Below are positions 5,559 through 62,899 of a stretch of 64,000 nucleotides of DNA, piece by piece (position 1 is the stretch's first letter; each line of letters opens with the position of its first letter). The notes below the pieces were generated by a model. It had not been told where the DNA came from. It worked only from the letters and a program-made list of their open reading frames with translations, and did not search any database. The DNA is from Syntrophobacterales bacterium (GTDB taxonomy: Bacteria > Desulfobacterota > Syntrophobacteria > BM002). The stretch lies in NCBI GenBank assembly GCA_050124835.1, contig JASFEM010000004.1, positions 3,588-67,587 of the forward strand. The letters run 5' to 3'. The translations under genes and the position numbers were made by a program.

Positions 5559-5677
5559 GATTGGAATATTGGAACAATGGAATACTGGAATGATGGATCA
5601 CAAGGGAAAAACATTAATATGATTCTTTGTAGTTTTGTCACCCAAGATTCCATGATTCCAACATTCCACTATTCCAA
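5559..5677. repeat. inverted pair of 8-nt tandem arrays (NNNTGGAA)x4, spacer, (TTCCANNN)x4, inside the ABC operon between the second permease and the first ATPase
   Basis: Forward array TATTGGAA CAATGGAA TACTGGAA TGATGG at 5559-5596. Its reverse complement TTCCATGA TTCCAACA TTCCACTA TTCCAA lies at 5648-5677. A short GGGGC-TTT-GCCCC hairpin sits just upstream. Confidence 0.75.
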
Positions 5678-19046: not shown

Positions 19047-19050
19047 GAGA

Positions 19051-19083
19051 GATTTGAGATTGCAGATTGCAGATTGCGGAGTT
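19051..19083. repeat. heptamer tandem array (AGATTGC)x4 in the znuC-znuB intergenic spacer
   Basis: The sequence reads AGATTTG AGATTGC AGATTGC AGATTGC GG. Confidence 0.8.
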
Positions 19084-20234: not shown

Positions 20235-20666
20235 ATGTGCGATCAGTGTGACTACCTTGGTCTCCTTGAAAATAGTGGTTTGGGCCATACTGCCAATCGA
20301 CTCAGTGTCCTGGAAATCATCGGAAACAGTCCCCACCCGCTGAGTGCCCAAGAAATTATTGAAAGATTGAACCGAACCCAAGGGATAAACAGAGTTACCG
20401 TTTACCGTAACCTCGACCTTTTGGTGGAGAATAGACTGGTTGAGCGCATTAGCGCCGGTGACCGCTCCTTCCGTTACGGTCTGGCTCCAAATATTAATCA
20501 TGAACCTCATTCCCACTTTTATTGTACAGAATGTGGCGAAATGGAATGCATCAAACCCGAATTTGTTTATCTGAACATGGAATCGCTCGAGCGCACTTTT
20601 CTTGGATTGATTGAAAGAGTGGAAGTCCGCTTTGATGGCATCTGCGAGGATTGTCGAAGGGGGTAA
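20235..20666 (+). CDS. zur: Fur-family metalloregulator, likely zinc uptake regulator
   Basis: 143 aa with a winged-helix N-terminus, HxH/CxxC metal sites (HEPHSHFYCTECG ... CEDC), and a position immediately after znuACB. Confidence 0.7.
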   Translation: MCDQCDYLGLLENSGLGHTANRLSVLEIIGNSPHPLSAQEIIERLNRTQGINRVTVYRNLDLLVENRLVERISAGDRSFRYGLAPNINHEPHSHFYCTECGEMECIKPEFVYLNMESLERTFLGLIERVEVRFDGICEDCRRG

Positions 20667-20670
20667 CTTT

Positions 20671-20746
20671 AGATTGTGGATTGTAGATTGCGGATTGCAG
20701 ATTGTAGATTGTGGATTGCAGATTGTAGATTGTGGATTGCAGATGC
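20671..20746. repeat. long heptamer tandem array (RGATTGY)x about 11 between the convergent zur and GAF-HD-GYP genes
   Basis: AGATTGT GGATTGT AGATTGC GGATTGC AGATTGT AGATTGT GGATTGC ... Its translation on the minus strand produces the artefactual ICNPQSTICNPQST ORF. Confidence 0.85.
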
Positions 20747-20770
20747 GAAAGATAAAGGAAATTGTGCAGG

Positions 20771-25954: not shown

Positions 25955-26098
25955 ATTGGAATGGTGGAATAATGGAACAAAGGAATGATGGGAAAAGAGC
26001 GAAAAACTTCACAACTCATGATGCTCAACCGCTCCGTACATTCGATCTACGTACTTAAACCCATTATTCCAACATTCCAGCATTCCAGCATTCCAATA
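25955..26098. repeat. inverted pair of 8-nt tandem arrays (NNNTGGAA)x4-5, about 70-nt spacer, (NNNTTCCA)x4, same family as 5559-5677
   Basis: Forward array ATTGGAA TGGTGGAA TAATGGAA CAAAGGAA TGATGGG at 25955-25992. Reverse array TTATTCCA ACATTCCA GCATTCCA GCATTCCA at 26063-26094. Confidence 0.75.
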
Positions 26099-26396
26099 GC
26101 CCTAGGCTTGTGTTTGCAGCCAAGCCCACAACCTGCGGGACCGACCGGCTCAGAGTGACCAGGTTCTCCATGACTGATTAACTCCAAGAGATTCCGAATA
26201 TTTCGTGGAGTACCCAGACCAAATATCACTTTTTCTCTTGCCAGTTTTTCCGCCTTCTTGTAGCCTGAAATTAGCCCATTTTTTGCTCGCCAGCGCGAAT
26301 TTCATCCTGATTTTCTTTTGCTCTGATGGGCCTGCAATCCAGCATCTTGGACATTTTGGGCAACAAGTTTTAGTGTCCCTTTATGAGGACAACGAA

Positions 26397-29649: not shown

Positions 29650-30918
29650 ATGCCAGTATCTCTCGATCATGAGTCCTTTAGCTTGACTATTCAAGATTTG
29701 GGCTTTGAGTATGTTTTGGACGGTGCGGAATCCTTTTCTGGGATAGAGCTCAACCCCACTGCAGCAGACCCAGCATTGGATGAGTTCAACAAAAACCAGG
29801 GTCATGCGGGGAAGATTGATCTGCCGAAATCCCACACACCTCCGCAAGCTGAGGAAGAAGAACAGTTTCAAAAAAATCTTATCAGTTTCTATCTGAGAGA
29901 TGTCTCTCAATTTTCTCTGCTAACTCCTGAGCGCGAGATTGAATTGGCCAAGACCATAAAAGAAAGCCAAGAACTGCTCGTGAACCTTGTTGTCCACAAT
30001 TGTGCTGCTGAAAACCACTTCCCCCATCTTCGTCAGAAGATCCTTAATTGGCAAAGCGACGTAGAATCTTATCCAGGATTGCGCGAGAAGATGGTGGTCT
30101 ATATTGTATCCACCCTGGAAAAAGCTGCGGCTCAAGAGGGAGCTTCTGAAATATGCCAAGAATTGAACGCTCGGGTTCGAGACATTGTTGCCAGAATCAA
30201 CTCAGCTAAGGATGAAATGGTTAAAGCTAACCTCCGACTGGTTTTAAGCATTGCCAAGCGGTATCGCGGCCGAGGCCTGAGCTTTCTCGATCTTGTCCAG
30301 GAGGGCAACATGGGGCTGCTCAAAGCGGTTGTTCGATATGACTATACCAAGGGGAACCGTTTCAGCACTTATGCTACTTGGTGGGTACGGCAGTCCATTA
30401 TCCGAGCCATCTATGAGAAGACCAACACCATTAGGCTCCCGGTGCATGTTGTTGAGATGAAAACTTTCTTTTCTAAGATCACTTCAGAACTTACAGAGGA
30501 ACTGGACCGCGCGCCCAGTCCCTTGGAGATTGCCGAACGCTGTGGATACCCTCTTGAAAAAGTCACGATGCTCGCCCAGCTCTCTAATCGACCAGCCTCT
30601 CTCGAAGCGCCGGTTGGACAGATGGAGCAGCGGCTTACTGACGTCATAGAAGACAAGACTATTCCCTCGCCTCTTGAAGGGATCAGCCAACAGGAGCTTG
30701 TGGATGTCATCCGCAAGGTTCTGGCCTCGCTATCTCCCCGGGAGGAGGGAGTGCTCAAGTCACGTTTCGGTATCGATGGCAAGCCCTCACAGACACTCAA
30801 GACTATTGGTGGGCGGTTAGGTGTATCAAAGGAACGCATCCGCCAGATAGAGAAAAGGGCCATCAATAAACTGCGACAAAACTCGCGCTCCGAGCAACTC
30901 AGGTGTTTTGTTGAATAG
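29650..30918 (+). CDS. RNA polymerase sigma-70 family factor, group 2-like (RpoD/RpoS-related) with an N-terminal extension of about 190 aa
   Basis: Region 2 DLVQEGNMGLLKAVVRYDYTKGNRFSTYATWWVRQSIIRAI is near-identical to the RpoD consensus. Regions 3 and 4.2 (LGVSKERIRQIEKRAINKL) are present. At 423 aa it is too short for a primary sigma. An AGGAG RBS precedes the ATG at 29650. Confidence 0.75.
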   Translation: MPVSLDHESFSLTIQDLGFEYVLDGAESFSGIELNPTAADPALDEFNKNQGHAGKIDLPKSHTPPQAEEEEQFQKNLISFYLRDVSQFSLLTPEREIELAKTIKESQELLVNLVVHNCAAENHFPHLRQKILNWQSDVESYPGLREKMVVYIVSTLEKAAAQEGASEICQELNARVRDIVARINSAKDEMVKANLRLVLSIAKRYRGRGLSFLDLVQEGNMGLLKAVVRYDYTKGNRFSTYATWWVRQSIIRAIYEKTNTIRLPVHVVEMKTFFSKITSELTEELDRAPSPLEIAERCGYPLEKVTMLAQLSNRPASLEAPVGQMEQRLTDVIEDKTIPSPLEGISQQELVDVIRKVLASLSPREEGVLKSRFGIDGKPSQTLKTIGGRLGVSKERIRQIEKRAINKLRQNSRSEQLRCFVE

Positions 30919-31020
30919 GGTTATACCGGCCCAATGAATGGATCGGCTTATAGAACCTGATAAATTTAGGCAATTTCAGAGAAGGTGTTTCGCATGTTTT
31001 GGAAAACGGTTATAAACTTT

Positions 31021-31222
31021 GCTCCGCAACTGCTATTGAGGGCTGAGTCATTCCCTCCGCTTACGCTCAGTCTGCTACCTCGCGGGGGGAAGTCCTTCGG
31101 AGCGGAGGCAGAGGCAGCCTGAGCTGCGGATGTGCCAGCCTTTGCTGTTTTGCTTGGGTAGAGTTGTCTCCTTTAAAAGACAAAGGCTGGCCACATACGC
31201 CGCTTCGGGAATATGCCAGCCC
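31021..31222 (-). repeat. copy C (reverse orientation) of an approximately 200-bp dispersed element with terminal inverted repeats
   Basis: Reverse complement aligns to 44346-44552 over both ends (CTCCGC..TTGAGGGCTGAG.CATTCCC ... GGGAATATGCCAGCCC). This copy carries an internal 11-bp-stem hairpin GCCAGCCTTTG...CAAAGGCTGGC. Confidence 0.7.
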
Positions 31223-31330
31223 ACATCTATACGGAGTTAAGTACATAGGCGTTTTCTAAATATACGGCCCCGCTATTATCTTAGCGGTGTGGAATGAAGT
31301 GGCTGCAACATTGGGGTAAGGAGGAAAACC

Positions 31331-31531
31331 ATGCATATTTGTAATCAGTGTGAGAGAAGATTCGCTGAGAGTAAACCTAATATGATCGTTTGTAGCGGTA
31401 AGGAGATCTGTTTTTTCTGCAGTGCAAGCTGTAGGGATGAATGGATGTTCCCTAAGTTATTGCTTGAATGGGTGCGCACCACTGTTCCAAATAGCGAGTT
31501 GGATCGAGCGCTGCAACCATTAAAATCGTGA
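31331..31531 (+). CDS. small TRASH-domain (C-X2-C-X22-C-X3-C) metal-binding protein
   Basis: 66 aa with Cys4, Cys7, Cys30 and Cys34 in TRASH/YHS spacing. A strong AAGGAGG RBS lies 7 nt upstream. Confidence 0.55.
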   Translation: MHICNQCERRFAESKPNMIVCSGKEICFFCSASCRDEWMFPKLLLEWVRTTVPNSELDRALQPLKS

Positions 31532-31583: not shown

Positions 31584-31630
31584 TTCCTGCACACGGTAGT
31601 CAGTTGGAGTAATGGAGCCCAACGACTTTA

Positions 31631-31738
31631 GATTTTAGAATGCAGATTTAAGATTTAAGAGCTTAGGACCTCATAGTAAGGAAAGCATGTAACCTCAATC
31701 TGGAATCTGCAATCTGAAGTCTGCAATCTGCAATCCTT
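31631..31738. repeat. composite element: forward heptamer array (AGATTNN)x4-5, 34-nt spacer, reverse array (CAATCTG)x6
   Basis: Forward AGATTTT AGAATGC AGATTTA AGATTTA at 31631-31663. Reverse CAATCTG GAATCTG CAATCTG AAGTCTG CAATCTG CAATCC at 31698-31738. It shares the left flank GTTGGAGTAATGGAG with the copy at 32684. Confidence 0.8.
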
Positions 31739-32248
31739 TAGGTCATCACTAGGGCGGTAATCGTTGACTTGTTTGAGCTCTAGTCATGACCCTTCCGCAT
31801 TACCAAGTCTCCGCCTTCCGCAGTGCCTCTTCTATCTCCTCGATCATCTTAAATCCATGGATCAATCCGTTCTCCGTTCACTTAAACGCCCTGCGCATTG
31901 CTGAAAATAGGAAAACCCCACCTCTGCGGCTCCATGCAGAGGTGGGGCGAATCCAGGGAGGTTTCAATAGGATAGAGTGTAAACGGGGAAAATTTATACC
32001 CTACCCGTCTGATAGTATAACCTGAAAATAAGGCAGAGGGAATATGGTGGTCCCGGAGTAAGCAAAAATGGAAGATTGATGCCCCATGAGTCCAAGTAGG
32101 TTAGCCTTTTCGGATAAAAACGGATCCCAAAAGAATCGCCACTAGTAAAAACTATCAAACGGAGTGAGAACAGGAGAATGAGGCTTCTTTACCTACTATT
32201 CTATGTAGTATATGGTTGTAAGAAAACGAAAGAGAGGAGGATACCGTT

Positions 32249-32584: not shown

Positions 32585-32683
32585 GCAAAGAATCCAGAAC
32601 AGGGACCTTTCTTTGAGCTGCGTCCAGAGCTAGTCTTTCCTTGGGGCGAGAGTCTGTTGGTGTAATGGAGTAAGGATCATTTC

Positions 32684-32763
32684 AGATTTTAGAATGCAGA
32701 TTGCAGATTTTTTTAACGAATTAAAAACAGCAACTTTAAAACAAAATCTGAAATCTACAATCC
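32684..32763. repeat. second copy of the composite element: forward (AGATTNN)x4, AT-rich spacer, reverse (AAATCTR)x3
   Basis: AGATTTT AGAATGC AGATTGC AGATTTT ... AAATCTG AAATCTA CAATCC. The flanks GTAATGGAG upstream and CAATCCT downstream are shared with 31631-31738. Confidence 0.8.
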
Positions 32764-32775
32764 TCTGAGCTTTGG

Positions 32776-32811
32776 CCTGGCCCAAAGGACCAGGTTACCG
32801 GGACGCTAATG
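32776..32811 (+). promoter_or_regulatory. conserved leader motif CCTGGCCCAAAGGACCAGGTTACCGGGAC..AATGAG, shared with 56833-56880
   Basis: About 29 of 32 nt are identical between the two loci. It contains the imperfect palindrome TGGCCC-AAA-GGACCA. Here the AATGAG includes the annotated start codon of the radical SAM gene. Confidence 0.5.
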
Positions 32812-36622: not shown

Positions 36623-36705
36623 TCCCCTGCGACCCTGAACTGCCAGGAGACTTGCTTAAGAAATCGCAAATCATTTCGAAAAACACATTTATTAACCTCA
36701 TCACA

Positions 36706-36840
36706 GGTTGGGCTTGAGGGCTGAGGTATTCCCGACGCGGCGTATGTTGCCAGCCTATGCAAACTTGAATGGTTAGGCCGTCCTGCATGTTGCTGCAGAG
36801 GATGGCAATCCCGCGTCTCGCGGGACTCGGGCTGCCAGCT
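36706..36840 (+). repeat. copy B (truncated) of the approximately 200-bp dispersed element
   Basis: GGTTGGGCTTGAGGGCTGAGGTATTCCCGACGCGGCGTATGTTGCCAGCCTATGCAAACTTGAATGGTTAGGCCGT matches copy A over its first 130 nt or so. It lies in the 270-bp gap between the glycoside hydrolase start and the glucokinase stop. Confidence 0.7.
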
Positions 36841-36891
36841 GTCTGCTGTCTGCTTAGAAGTGCTCTATGCTCTCTGCCCCATGCCCTATGC

Positions 36892-37899
36892 TTATTTCGA
36901 CAAGCGGCTAAGGGCACAATGTGCCGCCCCCAACAGGGCCGCCTGCTCGTTGAGAATCACCCGGACAGGTATTTTCTCTAACAATTCACTGAACCTGCCT
37001 TTGTTTGTAAATGCCTGCATAAACATAGATTCCTTCAGTTTAGGCAGGATTTTAGGTGGGATCCCACCACCCAGGTAAACACCTCCCGTCGTCATCGCGA
37101 TTAAGGCCAGGTTACCGGCAACTGCTCCAAATATGGAGACAAACATATTCAATGCCGCCACGCACACGGGATGTTTACCATCCAGTGCGGCTTCGGTAAT
37201 CGCCCTTGCCGGATCCATCTCTTCCATGTTCCTGGCTAACCAGGTAGGTATCCGATGGCGGCCGGTGTCTTTGAGCCATAGATAAATATTTACCAATCCG
37301 GGACCAGACAAGACCCTTTCTACGCTGACGTGCCCAAATCGTTTATGAAGGTAACGCCACAATTTGATTTCCGCTTCGGTGTTTGGAGAAAAATCGATGT
37401 GCCCCCCCTCAGAAGGTACAGGGACGTACTCCCCGTCTCGAAAAATAAGCAATGCCTTCCCCAGACCCGTGCCTGGAGCGACCAACGCAAGGTTTTGCCC
37501 TTTGCGACTTTTTGCCTTGTTCAAGCGAAAGAGCTCTCGACTGTTCAGAAGAGGAATGGCATGCGCCGTGGCTGTCAAGTCATTTATAAGAGAGACATGG
37601 GCCCACTCGAAGCGTTTTTTAATCTTATCTTCGGCGACGTACCACGGCAAATTGGTTGTTTGGCATCGCCCATTTATCACCGGACCCGCAATACCAAAGC
37701 ATGCACTCTGAACCGGCACCTGATGTTTGTCCAAAAATCGTGCGATGATCCACTCCAGATTCGGCGCCTCCCTGCTGGAATAAGTCTCAATTACCTTTGC
37801 AGCAGGACGGGTCCTTCCTTGACGGAAAAAGCCGAGGTTCGTCTTTGTCCCCCCAATATCACCGGCTAAAACAAAAAGATCACTCTCAGGATTTTTCAT
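36892..37899 (-). CDS. glk: glucokinase (Glk family)
   Basis: N-terminal ATP motif LAGDIGGTKTNLGFF, with length and downstream blocks consistent with bacterial Glk. Confidence 0.7.
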   Translation of the reverse strand: MKNPESDLFVLAGDIGGTKTNLGFFRQGRTRPAAKVIETYSSREAPNLEWIIARFLDKHQVPVQSACFGIAGPVINGRCQTTNLPWYVAEDKIKKRFEWAHVSLINDLTATAHAIPLLNSRELFRLNKAKSRKGQNLALVAPGTGLGKALLIFRDGEYVPVPSEGGHIDFSPNTEAEIKLWRYLHKRFGHVSVERVLSGPGLVNIYLWLKDTGRHRIPTWLARNMEEMDPARAITEAALDGKHPVCVAALNMFVSIFGAVAGNLALIAMTTGGVYLGGGIPPKILPKLKESMFMQAFTNKGRFSELLEKIPVRVILNEQAALLGAAHCALSRLSK

Positions 37900-43369: not shown

Positions 43370-44281
43370 CTATTCATCCTTGGCTGTCTTAACCGCGTGA
43401 CCGCCAAATTCCCTCCGCAGGGCCGCAAGAACCCTGTCCTCGAAAGCATTCTCTTGCCTGGATCTGAATCTTCTAAAAAGCGACAAGGCTATAACTGGAG
43501 CGGATACGCCACTTTCAACTGCCTGTTGCACAGTCCAGCGCCCTTCCCCCGAGTCTTCCACATATCCGCGAATTTCTGTGAGCCTTTCATCCTTGGCAAA
43601 GGCTGTCTCCAAGAGCTCCAGAAGCCACGAACGTACCACACTTCCCTGATTCCACAGGTGCGCCACTTTGGAGTAATCAAGGGATTCTGCGTAAGGAGAG
43701 CCCTCCAAAATGGCAAACCCTTCCCCGTAGGCCTGCATCATTCCATACTCGATACCGTTATGAACCATTTTGACAAAGTGACCAGCGCCAATGGGACCGC
43801 AATGGAGATAGCCATCCTCGGGTGCCAGTGTCTTGAAAATTGGCTCGAGATATTCATAGATCTGGCGGTCTCCGCCCATCATCATGCAATACCCTACCTG
43901 GAGTCCCCAGATGCCCCCGCTCACACCAACATCCATAAACTTAATTCCGGCCTCAGCCAGCATCTCGGAGCGGCGGATGTCATCTTTATAGTAGGTGTTA
44001 CCTCCATCAATGATGATGTCGTCAACAGACAGCAAGTCTTTAAGCTGCTCGAGGTGATCATCGACGGGCTTGCCAGCAGGAAGCATAAGCCAGACGACTC
44101 GTGGCGGTTCCAACTTCTCAACCAGTTCGGTTAAAGAAAAGCTCCCTATTGCGCCCTCCTTGACAATTTCCTCTGTCTTGTTGGGCGTTCGATTGAAGGC
44201 TACCACCTCATGCCCCCCCTGAAGCAGCCGCTTCGCCATATTCATTCCCATGCGGCCCAAGCCAATCATAGCCAATTTCAT
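43370..44281 (-). CDS. 6-phosphogluconate dehydrogenase (decarboxylating)-like, short YqeC-type
   Basis: N-terminal Rossmann motif MIGLGRMGMNMAKRL, a length of about 300 aa and a Gnd-family C-terminal domain. Confidence 0.7.
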   Translation of the reverse strand: MKLAMIGLGRMGMNMAKRLLQGGHEVVAFNRTPNKTEEIVKEGAIGSFSLTELVEKLEPPRVVWLMLPAGKPVDDHLEQLKDLLSVDDIIIDGGNTYYKDDIRRSEMLAEAGIKFMDVGVSGGIWGLQVGYCMMMGGDRQIYEYLEPIFKTLAPEDGYLHCGPIGAGHFVKMVHNGIEYGMMQAYGEGFAILEGSPYAESLDYSKVAHLWNQGSVVRSWLLELLETAFAKDERLTEIRGYVEDSGEGRWTVQQAVESGVSAPVIALSLFRRFRSRQENAFEDRVLAALRREFGGHAVKTAKDE

Positions 44282-44345
44282 TTCATAACCTCCAAATTGC
44301 CAATTAGAGAATTTCGCAATACGTACATAAATTTAACCTAGCATA

Positions 44346-44552
44346 GGTTGGGCTTGAGGGCTGAGTTATTCCCAAAGCGGCGTATGTTGTAAGCCTATGC
44401 AAGCTTCAATGGTTAGGCCGTGCTGCCTTTAGCTGCAGAGGCTGGCGACATCCGCAGCTCGGGCTGCCATTGCCTCCGGTCCGAAGCACTTCCCCCCGCA
44501 AGTGTAGCAGACCGAGCGTAAGCGGAGGGAATGGCTTAGCGCTCAAGCCTTT
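44346..44552 (+). repeat. copy A (full length) of the approximately 200-bp dispersed element with terminal inverted repeats
   Basis: 5-prime end GGTTGGGCTTGAGGGCTGAGTTATTCCC. 3-prime end GGGAATGGCTTAGCGCTCAAGCC. These are imperfect reverse complements of each other. Confidence 0.7.
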
Positions 44553-44587
44553 GAGCGGAGCTAAGACAAGAGGCATATTTTCGAATT

Positions 44588-46045
44588 CTAGCTCTCTTCG
44601 CCGCAGGCCCTTCCTTTCAGATTGAAAAAGAGTTTTAATCCCTTCTTTACTCTATCGGAGAATATCTTGGGAGAAAAGAATGTCCCTGCGACCCTTTTGT
44701 TGATTTCACCCAGGGTCGGATATGGATGCACCGCCGAGGCAAGCGTGGAGAGTTTCACCTTTCCATTTAACACAGCTACCCATTCACCCAGTAATTCTCC
44801 TGCTTGTGGACCCAATATCTGAACCCCAATTGGCTTTTCTTTTTCATCAAGGATCATTTTGATCTTTCCGACTTTTTCACCCTCTGCCAGACTTCTGTCG
44901 TTATCTTTAAACTCTTCAGTCCACACAGCATACTGGATTCCGGCAGCCTCGGCTGCTTTTTCATTCATACCAATGCTAGCGAGTTCAGGGTCAGTATAGG
45001 TGCACCACGGCAAGAAGGTGTAGTCTACCTTTCTCGGGAGATGAAAAATCGCATTGGTGAACACGACACCGCCCTCGTAACCGGCAGCATGAGTGAACTG
45101 ATACTCACCGGTGACATCTCCTGCTGCATATATGTGCTTTTGTTTTGTTCTCAAGCGCTTGTCTACCTGTATGCCTTTCCCACTAAACTCTATGCCCAAC
45201 TCTTCCAGCCCTAAACCTTCCACGTTGGCTTCTCGACCCATGGCAACCAGGATTTTTTCGCCCCTAAGCTGGATCGTTTTGTTCGCGCCATTCTTAAGAA
45301 CCACCTCTCTCTCGTTCCCCAGGTCCCGAACAGCCACCACAGAGGAGTTGAGATAAAATGTGACCCCCTCAGCTTGCAAAACCTCCTTGACTGCGTCGGC
45401 CATATCTTTGTCTTCTTTGCTCAAGATCTGATTACTCCGCTGAACCACAGAGACCTTCGCACCAAGGCGGCAGAATGCCTGTGCCATCTCTATGGCTATG
45501 GGTCCAGCTCCAAGAATTATCAAGGATTTTGGCAGATGATCGAGGGAAAAGATTTCCTTGTTGGTGATATAAGGGGTTTTATCCAACCCCTCTATTTGAG
45601 GTATGGCAGGAGAGGAACCTGTAGAAAGTACCCAGGCTTTGGCTGAGAAGGTCGCTCCATTCAGACGGATGGTGTGCTCATCGGTAAAGGTTGGATCACC
45701 AAATTCCACCCTGGCGCCGAGCTTGCAGAATCTTTCCACTGAATCGTGCTCTTGAATGGTATTGATAACCGATTGAATTCTATTTGCCACCTCACGATAA
45801 TCAACAGGTGGAAGCTCAACCCCCGGAAGTCCGTATTCTCTTGAGCTTTTCATCAGATGGTAGACGTGAGCTGTTCTGATCAGGGTTTTGCTCGGCACGC
45901 ACCCGTAGTGCAGGCAGTCGCCCCCAAGTTCTTTTTCCTTTTCAACCAGCAGAGTCTTGGCACCAGCTTGGGCAGCTCCAGCCGTCACGGTTAAACCTGC
46001 TGCGCCACCGCCAATTACACCTATGTCAAAATCATAATCAGCCAT
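44588..46045 (-). CDS. class I pyridine nucleotide-disulfide oxidoreductase (dihydrolipoyl dehydrogenase / mercuric reductase-like core)
   Basis: FAD motif GVIGGGAAG. Redox-active disulfide GGDCLHYGCVPSK, a second Rossmann fold and the interface domain. No HMA domain and no C-terminal Cys pair. Confidence 0.7.
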   Translation of the reverse strand: MADYDFDIGVIGGGAAGLTVTAGAAQAGAKTLLVEKEKELGGDCLHYGCVPSKTLIRTAHVYHLMKSSREYGLPGVELPPVDYREVANRIQSVINTIQEHDSVERFCKLGARVEFGDPTFTDEHTIRLNGATFSAKAWVLSTGSSPAIPQIEGLDKTPYITNKEIFSLDHLPKSLIILGAGPIAIEMAQAFCRLGAKVSVVQRSNQILSKEDKDMADAVKEVLQAEGVTFYLNSSVVAVRDLGNEREVVLKNGANKTIQLRGEKILVAMGREANVEGLGLEELGIEFSGKGIQVDKRLRTKQKHIYAAGDVTGEYQFTHAAGYEGGVVFTNAIFHLPRKVDYTFLPWCTYTDPELASIGMNEKAAEAAGIQYAVWTEEFKDNDRSLAEGEKVGKIKMILDEKEKPIGVQILGPQAGELLGEWVAVLNGKVKLSTLASAVHPYPTLGEINKRVAGTFFSPKIFSDRVKKGLKLFFNLKGRACGEES

Positions 46046-49786: not shown

Positions 49787-49982
49787 CTTGTATCACAAAA
49801 ATATCTATGTCTTTTATCTCTCACAGAGATCACAACCGGCTTATAATCCATTGTTTACCAATAACTAGGCAGTAGGCACATAAAACTTGCCTCTTAGAGC
49901 TAGTCTGTTACTCTAGAGCTTTCGGCATTTGCGCCTGACAATTTCTTTCAAACAGTAAACAAATAGTTGTTTGTATTTTTTT

Positions 49983-50014
49983 GTGCTTAGTGCTTAGTGT
50001 TTAGTGGTTAGTTA
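49983..50014. repeat. heptamer tandem array (GCTTAGT/TTAGTGN)x4
   Basis: The sequence reads GTGCTTA GTGCTTA GTGTTTA GTGGTTA GTTA. Confidence 0.75.
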
Positions 50015-51074: not shown

Positions 51075-51263
51075 TCCCGGTCGCAGCGAGAGGATCACCA
51101 GGCACTGGGGGGCAACGCGGTGAAACGGCGAGACGGAGACGCGGCGAAAATGCCAGCAAATTGAGAGGGATTCAGTTTTGATGGCTTTTCCCCTGACTAC
51201 TGGATTCTGACTCCTGGCTCCTTCCGCTATGAAACTCTACCGACTGAATAAGACTGATTAAGA

Positions 51264-56801: not shown

Positions 56802-56832
56802 TCTTCTACCGGCAAAGCCATTGAAACTTGAC

Positions 56833-56880
56833 CTGGCCCAAAGGACCAGGTTTCCAGGACTACAATGAGGTGAGAGTATC
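56833..56880 (+). promoter_or_regulatory. second copy of the conserved leader motif CCTGGCCCAAAGGACCAGGTTTCCAGGAC..AATGAG
   Basis: Near-identical to 32776-32811. Here the AATGAG opens a 2-codon uORF (ATG AGG TGA) 16 nt upstream of the main ATG at 56881. Confidence 0.5.
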
Positions 56881-59259: not shown

Positions 59260-59759
59260 GAAAGGAGTCAGATCGGTAAAAAATAAACGGTGAACGGATC
59301 AGTCCATGGATTTAATACTGCTCGCTGCTCACCGTTTACCCCGTTTGATGCTTTAGATTATTTTTTGCTTATCTTTGTGCGCTTTGTGGTGAAACACTAG
59401 CGCATAGAGACAAAGCCGGTCTGGGCAACAGCCCCTCAAGACCTGACCCCGTTTTGTTGCTCGGCCTTCTCTTCTCTCCTTATTATCTGTATATCCTTCT
59501 GCGTCTCTTCTTGACCAAACGTTTTATAGCTTTTTCGTGTTTCAGCCTGCTTCTCTCGCCTTTACTCAAATAGTAACGATGTCTTTTTATGGAGGGTCCG
59601 ACATTCCTCTGAAAGTCTTTCTTGAGTCGCTTTAGCCTCTTTTCAAAAGTATGCAAGTCGTGCCACCTTTCGTTAATGCAAATCTAGGCAAAGGAATTAT
59701 GCTGGGACTGGTTTCTTCCGTCTGACTGAAAGATGCCCATAATAATGGTGTCGTCGCCT

Positions 59760-62724: not shown

Positions 62725-62899
62725 CAGGCAGCGGACAGCGGGCACTAGGCACTCTGGTAATTGCGGATTTTGAAATTATCAGGCGTGATATCCGATCTCT
62801 GTTATCTGTCCTCTAGTCTCCGTCTCGCCGTTTCTCCGCGCCTGCCCGCCATCGGCTTCGCCTTCAGGCGAGGCGGGCGGGTCCCCGCGTCGTCCTCCT

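Follow-up and report, generated by a model that had tools for sequence, protein, structure and literature searches.

Intergenic imperfect palindromes of 100-160 bp that fold as one long hairpin are found in several bacterial groups, e.g. Correia in Neisseria, ERIC in enterobacteria and bcr1 in the Bacillus cereus group. They are present inside operons in either orientation and display size variants through internal insertions and deletions; Correia duplicates a TA and bcr1 a 5-bp site. Chunjie is a MITE of the deltaproteobacterium Geobacter uraniireducens and is inserted in an operon. REP/REPIN and IS200/IS605-derived elements are short hairpin units without terminal inverted repeats (TIRs) or target duplications. 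The IS families listed by ISfinder with 9-bp duplications are IS4/IS10/IS50, the IS903 group of IS5, IS1 and ISLre2, and of these types IS10, as well as Tn5, prefers a symmetric target.

Bacterial MITEs are defined as elements of ~50-600 bp that have TIRs and have lost the transposase (PMC6382973). MITEAba12 of Acinetobacter is 113 bp long with 78% A+T and 16-bp TIRs, and its candidate parent is ISAba12 (PMC6382973).

Reported here is a repeat family found in a stretch of 64,000 nt (the window) from contig JASFEM010000004.1 of a Syntrophobacterales bacterium. The repeats are considered to be copies of a MITE, i.e. a non-coding, non-autonomous DNA transposon of ~246-258 bp, with a probability of roughly 0.85. 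The element resembles Correia, ERIC and bcr1 in being an intergenic imperfect palindrome with size variants, found in either orientation; it is larger than these three, has a 9-bp target-site duplication (TSD) and a non-palindromic core, and is not known to share sequence similarity with them. The 9-bp staggered cut proposed for it is that of the IS families with duplications of this length and the symmetric target is like that of IS10 and Tn5, but the ACGCCTAT termini have been matched to no family and no transposase has been found. In common with MITEAba12 the element is non-coding, multicopy and mostly intergenic, shows TIRs, 9-bp TSDs, an AT-rich target preference and subgroups, and would be mobilised in trans (PMC6382973). 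It differs from MITEAba12 in its length (~255 bp), its 53% G+C, its ~50-bp arms and a core that is better conserved than the arms; a parent has not been found, and the hosts are uncultured Desulfobacterota-type bacteria.

Results

Repeat copies in the window

One repeat family is present in the window, with two full copies (A and C) and one truncated copy (B) (Table 1). The first-pass annotation had described three copies in 14 kb, and repeat searches bear this out. There is a direct repeat of 122 nt with 84% identity (36685-36806 and 44325-44446), and inverted matches of 55 nt (89%) and 43 nt (91%) relate 31036-31133 to 44448-44546. A pattern scan of the window for a 21-nt core pattern yields 3 occurrences vs 0.02 expected. 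The window copies are far beyond chance expectation. The copies were placed correctly in that annotation, but its coordinates cover only their inner part; with boundaries set by conservation and TSDs, the element gains about 25-30 bp at either end. The two ends quoted as reverse complements of one another do pair at 19 of 23 positions, the remaining positions being mismatched. The left-hand end so quoted is the inner part of the copy A right arm and the right-hand end is the inner part of the left arm.

The whole element is 246-258 bp long (roughly 255 bp) and carries no conserved open reading frame. With 69% identity, copies A and C resemble one another less than they do copies from other genomes, to which they are 88-91% identical. 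Both types of apical module are present in the window, one in copies A and B and the other in copy C. All three copies are located between genes and adjoin no transposase gene, which agrees with the earlier description.

Copy A occupies the spacer between the stop codon of a 485-aa Pyr_redox open reading frame (TAG, 44588-44590) and the start codon of a 303-aa 6-phosphogluconate-dehydrogenase-like open reading frame (ATG, 44279-44281). The left TSD directly adjoins the stop codon of the upstream gene. The apparent operon around copy A is left undisrupted by the insertion, and in this respect copy A is similar to the Chunjie MITE of a related phylum, a resemblance that is a lead only.

Copy C is flanked by a sigma-70 gene (stop at 30918) and a 66-aa open reading frame (start at 31331). 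The element with ~10 nt of flanking sequence on each side is identical to a segment of the metagenome contig WOR8_10014707 (L094), which places the source of the window in sediment of the White Oak River (WOR) estuary. A hairpin with an 11-bp stem, annotated previously as an extra feature of this copy, proves to be the homologous inner stem (GCCAGCCTTTG/CAAAGGCTGGC) topped by a subfamily-specific apical module.

Copy B is found between a glucokinase gene and a GH63-like gene. It had been read as an element that diverges past its first part, but it is truncated: the right part of the core, the inner palindrome and the right arm remain, and heptamer repeats (CATAGGG, GCAGACA) stand where the left arm and left core would be. 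The partner of its flanking 9-mer is gone along with the left end. Copy B also carries an optional hairpin insert. The same or a similar hairpin is present at this site in L014, L015 and L021, and a TCCGCC...GGCGGA variant in L017, L134 and L100.

Table 1. Positions in the window of the repeat copies, their parts and flanking duplications, and of tandem short-unit arrays.
Feature	Position	Strand	Evidence or remark
Copy A, full-length, 258 bp	44321..44578	-	nhmmer 246.9, profile positions 2-263
Copy A, minus-strand reading ATATGCCTCTTGTC...TTATGTACGT	44321..44578	-	
Copy A left inverted arm, terminus ATATGCC to ...CATTCCC	44527..44578	-	arm pairing
Copy A asymmetric core	44374..44526	-	best-conserved part of the family
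Copy A core, order of parts: TCCGCTTACGCTCGGTCTGCT..., GGCAGCCCGAGCTGCGGATG, inner palindrome with variable apical module, then ACATACGCCGCTT	44374..44526	-	
Copy A right inverted arm, GGGAATAACTCAGCCC to terminus ...TGTACGT	44321..44373	-	
Copy A left TSD (element sense), AATTCGAAA	44579..44587	-	7/9 vs right TSD
Copy A right TSD (element sense), ATTGCGAAA	44312..44320	-	7/9 vs left TSD
Copy C, full-length, 246 bp, orientation opposite to A, other apical module	31006..31251	+	nhmmer 258.6
Copy C left TSD, TTTTGGAAA	30997..31005	+	7/9 vs 31252-31260; fits target consensus TTTNNNAAA
Copy C right TSD, TTTTCTAAA	31252..31260	+	boundary uncertain by 1 nt
Copy B, truncated	36683..36838	-	nhmmer 107.5, profile positions 112-262
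Copy B optional hairpin insert, 17 nt, TCCCGCG-AGA-CGCGGGA	36809..36825	-	alignments
Copy B right flanking 9-mer, TTTTCGAAA	36674..36682	-	fits target consensus
Tandem 7-/8-nt arrays	20656-20753, 19049-19083, 31622-31736, 32676-32710		window
Tandem 7-/8-nt arrays	5642-5676, 26061-26103, 49982-50006, about 36845-36900		window

Some other repeats are also seen in the window. A conserved motif of ~40 nt, TTGRCCTGGCCCAAAGGACCAGGTTWCCRGGAC, with the hairpin CCTGG-N9-CCAGG, is found at 32775-32810 and 56829-56865, 15-25 nt upstream of the start codons of a radical SAM open reading frame (32809) and a 792-aa open reading frame (56881). It has no Rfam match and may be a cis-regulatory element. A 25-nt inverted repeat, CGCGGTGAAACGGCGAGACGGAGAC, has arms that are 96% complementary and 11.7 kb apart (51116-51140 and 62816-62840). 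An inverted match of 35 nt (83%), TTAAATCCATGGATCAATCCGTTCTCCGTTCACTT, is present in distant intergenic or open reading frame-poor regions (31849-31883 and 59281-59315) and may be a further dispersed repeat.

Termini and target-site duplications

Conserved 8-bp termini (ACGCCTAT...ATAGGCGT) tip imperfect inverted arms of ~50 bp, which enclose the asymmetric core of ~150 bp. The arms do not pair perfectly (helix 4 shows 87.5% and helix 2 shows 74% pairing in 60 copies).

Both conserved termini are abutted, at fixed profile offsets, by 9-bp direct repeats whose sequence varies from locus to locus. Target-site duplications, which the first-pass annotation had suggested looking for, are thus present. 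Perfect 9/9 duplications are found at L103 (TATTTCCGT), L134 (ATATTGATA), L066 (TTTAAAAAT), L110 (TTTACGCAA), L061 (TAACCTGAT) and L050 (TTCATGAAA), and five further loci show 8/9 matches at the same offsets. In an anchored test of 38 copies the TSD is perfect in six and is 8/9 or better in 10 (26%), vs 0.9% for mismatched flanks. The two flanks of one copy match at 6.66 of 9 positions on average, vs 4.91 of 9 when left and right flanks are taken from different copies (p = 3e-12). The duplications of copy A are degenerate and share their profile offsets with the perfect ones of other loci, and its predicted empty site reads GAGAGCTAG-AATTCGAAA-TTCTCTAATTGG.

The flank profile shows that the target is symmetric, palindromic and AT-rich, AA|TTTNNNAAA|TT. 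The palindrome of the element appears to extend past its termini (GAATTTCGGAAA...), and this extension is accounted for by the palindromic target and its duplication. The TIRs together with the 9-bp duplications set the element apart from REP/REPIN and IS200/IS605-derived palindromic elements.

Distribution in other genomes and metagenomes

A genome scan with the pattern ACATACGCCGCNNNGGGAATA showed 12 true copies in four Deltaproteobacteria/Desulfobacteraceae MAGs; six other matches were due to chance. At least seven of the 12 are found in the complete 3.2-Mb chromosome CP070735.1; CP070689.1 and GCA_964346905.1 bear the family as well. Since the pattern is present in only about one third of unbiased copies, the seven seen suggest by extrapolation ~20 copies in this chromosome. 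Metagenomes were scanned with an independent core pattern, and the matches listed are a lower bound. With an nhmmer profile, at least 87 copies are found in the collected loci, which are from related Desulfobacterota-type MAGs and sediment metagenomes. Of these, 64 are close to full length, and the 60 unique ones among them have a mean identity of 69%. The family is scattered over genomes of the sediment sulfate-reducer type. A count of copies beyond the window had been proposed at the outset, and many further ones have come to light. Many are located at contig ends, as expected of multicopy repeats that break assemblies.

Copies inside one genome are 59-86% identical, and the nearest copies in other genomes show 88-92% identity. 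Because the nearest relatives of copies are found in other genomes, the family consists of old subfamilies common to several species.

Nearly all copies are intergenic and almost none overlaps a long open reading frame. Their neighbours are unrelated housekeeping genes, e.g. hisS/aspS, ftsH, gnd-like and glk. The core carries indels of 1-2 nt, which are not multiples of three, and no open reading frame is conserved. The G+C content of the element is 53-55%.

A different arrangement is seen in L136, L041, L130, L092, L057 and L073 (PVMK01 and related contigs). There the repeated unit is ~400 nt long, with ~75 nt of conserved sequence past each MITE end, and its outer ends display no obvious inverted repeats. 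In these contigs the MITE appears to be embedded in a larger repeat that was amplified as a whole.

Orientation, deleted copies and the orthologous spacer

The orientation of copies is random with respect to neighbouring genes. Relative to the downstream open reading frame, which could be called for 67 of the 87 copies, 34 are in the same and 33 in the opposite orientation; for the upstream open reading frame the numbers are 35 and 43. Internally deleted copies (L026, L093, L065 and L047) retain both ends and their duplications, and one-sided truncations such as that of window copy B occur among the further copies. The L079 copy holds a second small repeat of ~180 nt (about 1420-1600) that recurs in L064 (94-294), a case of one mobile element family nested within another.

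The Pyr_redox/6PGD spacer was compared between relatives. In the window lineage it is 306 nt long with the element present. In relatives with 88-89% protein identity (L144 and L146) the orthologous spacer is 108-119 nt long without the element, and one of these relatives has the family elsewhere. In L157 and L158, with 96% protein identity, the flanking coding DNA aligns nearly perfectly with the window; the spacer consists of ~216 nt of unrelated heptamer-rich sequence and no element is present. An exact empty site with a single 9-mer was not recovered at these orthologous spacers because they are too diverged to align.

The same spacer in a more distant relative (L149 2190-2500, L150 1-330) contains 311 nt of an unrelated repeat rich in GTCATT/AATGAC. 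This spacer was colonised independently there. Tandem arrays of 7- or 8-nt units (GATTGYR, CCAnnATT, CATAGGG and others) occupy many intergenic spacers of the window, and the orthologous spacers of close relatives bear other heptamers (CATAGCG x4 in L144, the CACTAGG type in L157). As the heptamers differ between close relatives whose flanking genes are 95% identical, these spacers turn over very fast.

Discussion

Mobility and the parent element

The family displays TSDs, a target preference, random orientation, multicopy dispersal, deletion derivatives that retain both ends, and presence or absence at an orthologous locus, all of which are marks of mobility. Of the two candidates offered in the first-pass annotation, a non-autonomous MITE and a family of structured small RNAs, it is the former that these data favor.

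The mobilising transposase most likely acts in trans and is of the DDE type. A transposase encoded elsewhere would bind both ends of the element, make a 9-bp staggered cut at the AT-rich palindromic target and join the element in; repair of the stagger would then produce the 9-bp direct duplication. The conserved core may be needed for propagation, e.g. by providing internal transposase-binding sites or a fold-back structure.

Several observations fit a MITE less well. The TSDs of the window's own copies are degenerate (7/9 in two copies, with one end missing in the third), a precise empty site was not recovered, the G+C content is not that of an AT-rich element, and conservation is higher in the internal core than in the arms. 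In addition, neither the 64-kb window nor ~0.9 Mb of related loci yielded an autonomous parent IS with matching ends. The plasmid collection gave no match to the family, and it is absent from the viral collection, where six pattern matches in viral contigs were all due to chance. Matches of nhmmer to the arms only, considered as a possible parent IS, are remnants. The gene between two copies in L126, considered as a transposase, is hisS. Proteins that recur among the loci seem, from inspection of their sequences, to belong to housekeeping families.

Conservation and folding of the core

The core (TTCCCTCCGCTTACGCTCGGTCTGCT, GGCAGCCCGAGCTGCGGATG, ACATACGCCGCTTCGGGAA) displays a conservation of 0.85-0.98 per column, vs 0.62-0.76 in the outer arms. 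The difference holds also in sequence sets that were unselected on the region in question, and the core of close copies at different loci has about half the differences per site that their outer arms have. The signal of concerted evolution in these arms is weak, with a self-complementarity of 0.55 vs 0.51 between copies. Conservation of the core over the arms is atypical for a MITE. The core of the source copies is probably under constraint, e.g. through internal sites for transposase binding or a need to fold back, and a function at the level of the host is conceivable as well.

The element folds strongly. The consensus sequence has a folding energy of -150 kcal/mol, the means for the two strands are -110 and -113 kcal/mol, and z = -2.7 to -4.3 relative to shuffled sequences. 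RNAalifold on the MAFFT alignment was uninformative and pairs were therefore counted on the fold of the consensus sequence. The cells paired on this fold amount to 74.9%, vs 73.9% with shuffled partners. Deviations from consensus pairs are overwhelmingly disruptive, with 837 other, 371 A-C and 248 G-U combinations (1456 in all) vs 126 that are compensated. These counts rest on a sequence-based alignment and the test is not exhaustive; within that scope, the compensatory changes that the first-pass annotation had proposed looking for are negligible. In a count by pair, 29 pairs have more G-U than A-C and 36 have more A-C than G-U, so that there is no strand bias. An apparent excess of A-C by cells vanished at the level of pairs, since the changes are inherited within subfamilies. 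Given the absence of strand bias and the scarcity of covariation, the fold is a palindrome preserved by descent. There is no evidence for selection on the fold through transcription of one strand.

Among other readings of the family, the one that survives best retains the MITE but makes its conserved asymmetric core a functional module, so that the element would spread a function and not only itself. This is judged unlikely. As a structured RNA or a DNA site, the module might act on neighbouring genes, e.g. as a terminator, a stabiliser or a protein-binding site, or might aid transposition. The conservation figures, the low rate of core differences between close copies and the stable consensus fold are in line with it, as are the location of copy A within an apparent operon without disruption and the fact that the element plus its preferred target forms, whichever way it is read, a GC-based hairpin with TTT behind it. 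However, the disruptive pair deviations, pairing barely above the shuffled control, the lack of a strand bias by pair and the absence of a promoter, terminator or Rfam match argue against it, and the conservation may equally stem from constraints on the copies that are active as sources, for which internal sites of transposase binding are an example. A more specific proposal makes the strongly conserved, non-palindromic core of 150 nt a structured module under selection, as RNA or as single-stranded or cruciform DNA, which the MITE distributes between housekeeping genes. It might be a bidirectional terminator, a transcript-processing site or a cofactor for the element's own transposition; this proposal is regarded as quite doubtful.

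It is very improbable that the copies are genes for structured small RNAs, each transcribed on its own, rather than mobile DNA. The strong folding and the conservation of unpaired blocks, with optional hairpin inserts at a fixed site, would suit such genes, and the element is similar to Rfam structured RNAs in having a large, stable fold. Unlike these, it reaches no gathering score. Searches with 4227 Rfam models at gathering and permissive thresholds, over the 64 kb, over 16 kb and over two stretches of ~300 nt, gave no family match. The only weak matches are of generic hairpins to microRNA-precursor models, including mir-Ro6-3, at 18.8-23.2 bits vs 79 required, and copy C gives such matches on both strands. 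No promoter or terminator was detected in the element. Small RNA genes would also not be expected to have 9-bp duplications of variable sequence abutting their ends, equal folding of both strands, no wobble-pair asymmetry and negligible covariation, truncated and internally deleted copies, and orthologous sites in close relatives that lack the element. The small RNA candidate of the first-pass annotation is for these reasons disfavoured. Two further readings were rejected on their own grounds. TGGCAG...GCTGC and TTGACT, taken as sigma-54 and sigma-70 promoters, have the wrong spacing on inspection, in line with the negative promoter search, and a tRNA origin was dismissed as ARAGORN found no tRNA.

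A cis-regulatory leader (riboswitch or attenuator) of downstream genes is suggested only by the window, where the strand opposite to that of the first-pass annotation is the sense strand for both neighbours in all three copies, an agreement with a chance of 1 in 4; the even orientation count over 67 of the 87 copies refutes such a leader, the genes that follow the copies are not related to one another (6PGD, GH63, hisS, aspS, ftsH and others), and the reading is given next to no credence. Remnants of a local segmental duplication would explain three copies inside 14 kb and were to be considered if the repeat were confined to this region, but the flanks show no similarity, copies A and C are far less similar to each other than to copies in other genomes, and dozens of copies are located elsewhere, so that this reading is refuted and is just as improbable.

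Significance of the family

The MITE reading settles the identity of the repeat. Literature searches found no description of this repeat family, and it appears to be a MITE family of sediment bacteria of the Desulfobacterota type that had not been described before, ordinary as a kind of element but unusual in its conservation profile. For annotators of sediment Desulfobacterota/Syntrophobacterales MAGs, the family is now a defined repeat whose ends, 9-bp duplication and target (AATTTNNNAAATT) are known. It breaks assemblies and occupies operon spacers, and its strongly folding intergenic blocks should not be called small RNAs or riboswitches. The wider interest is in a core that is better kept than the arms. 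Should this conservation be due to function, the family would exemplify a mobile element that spreads a structured module.
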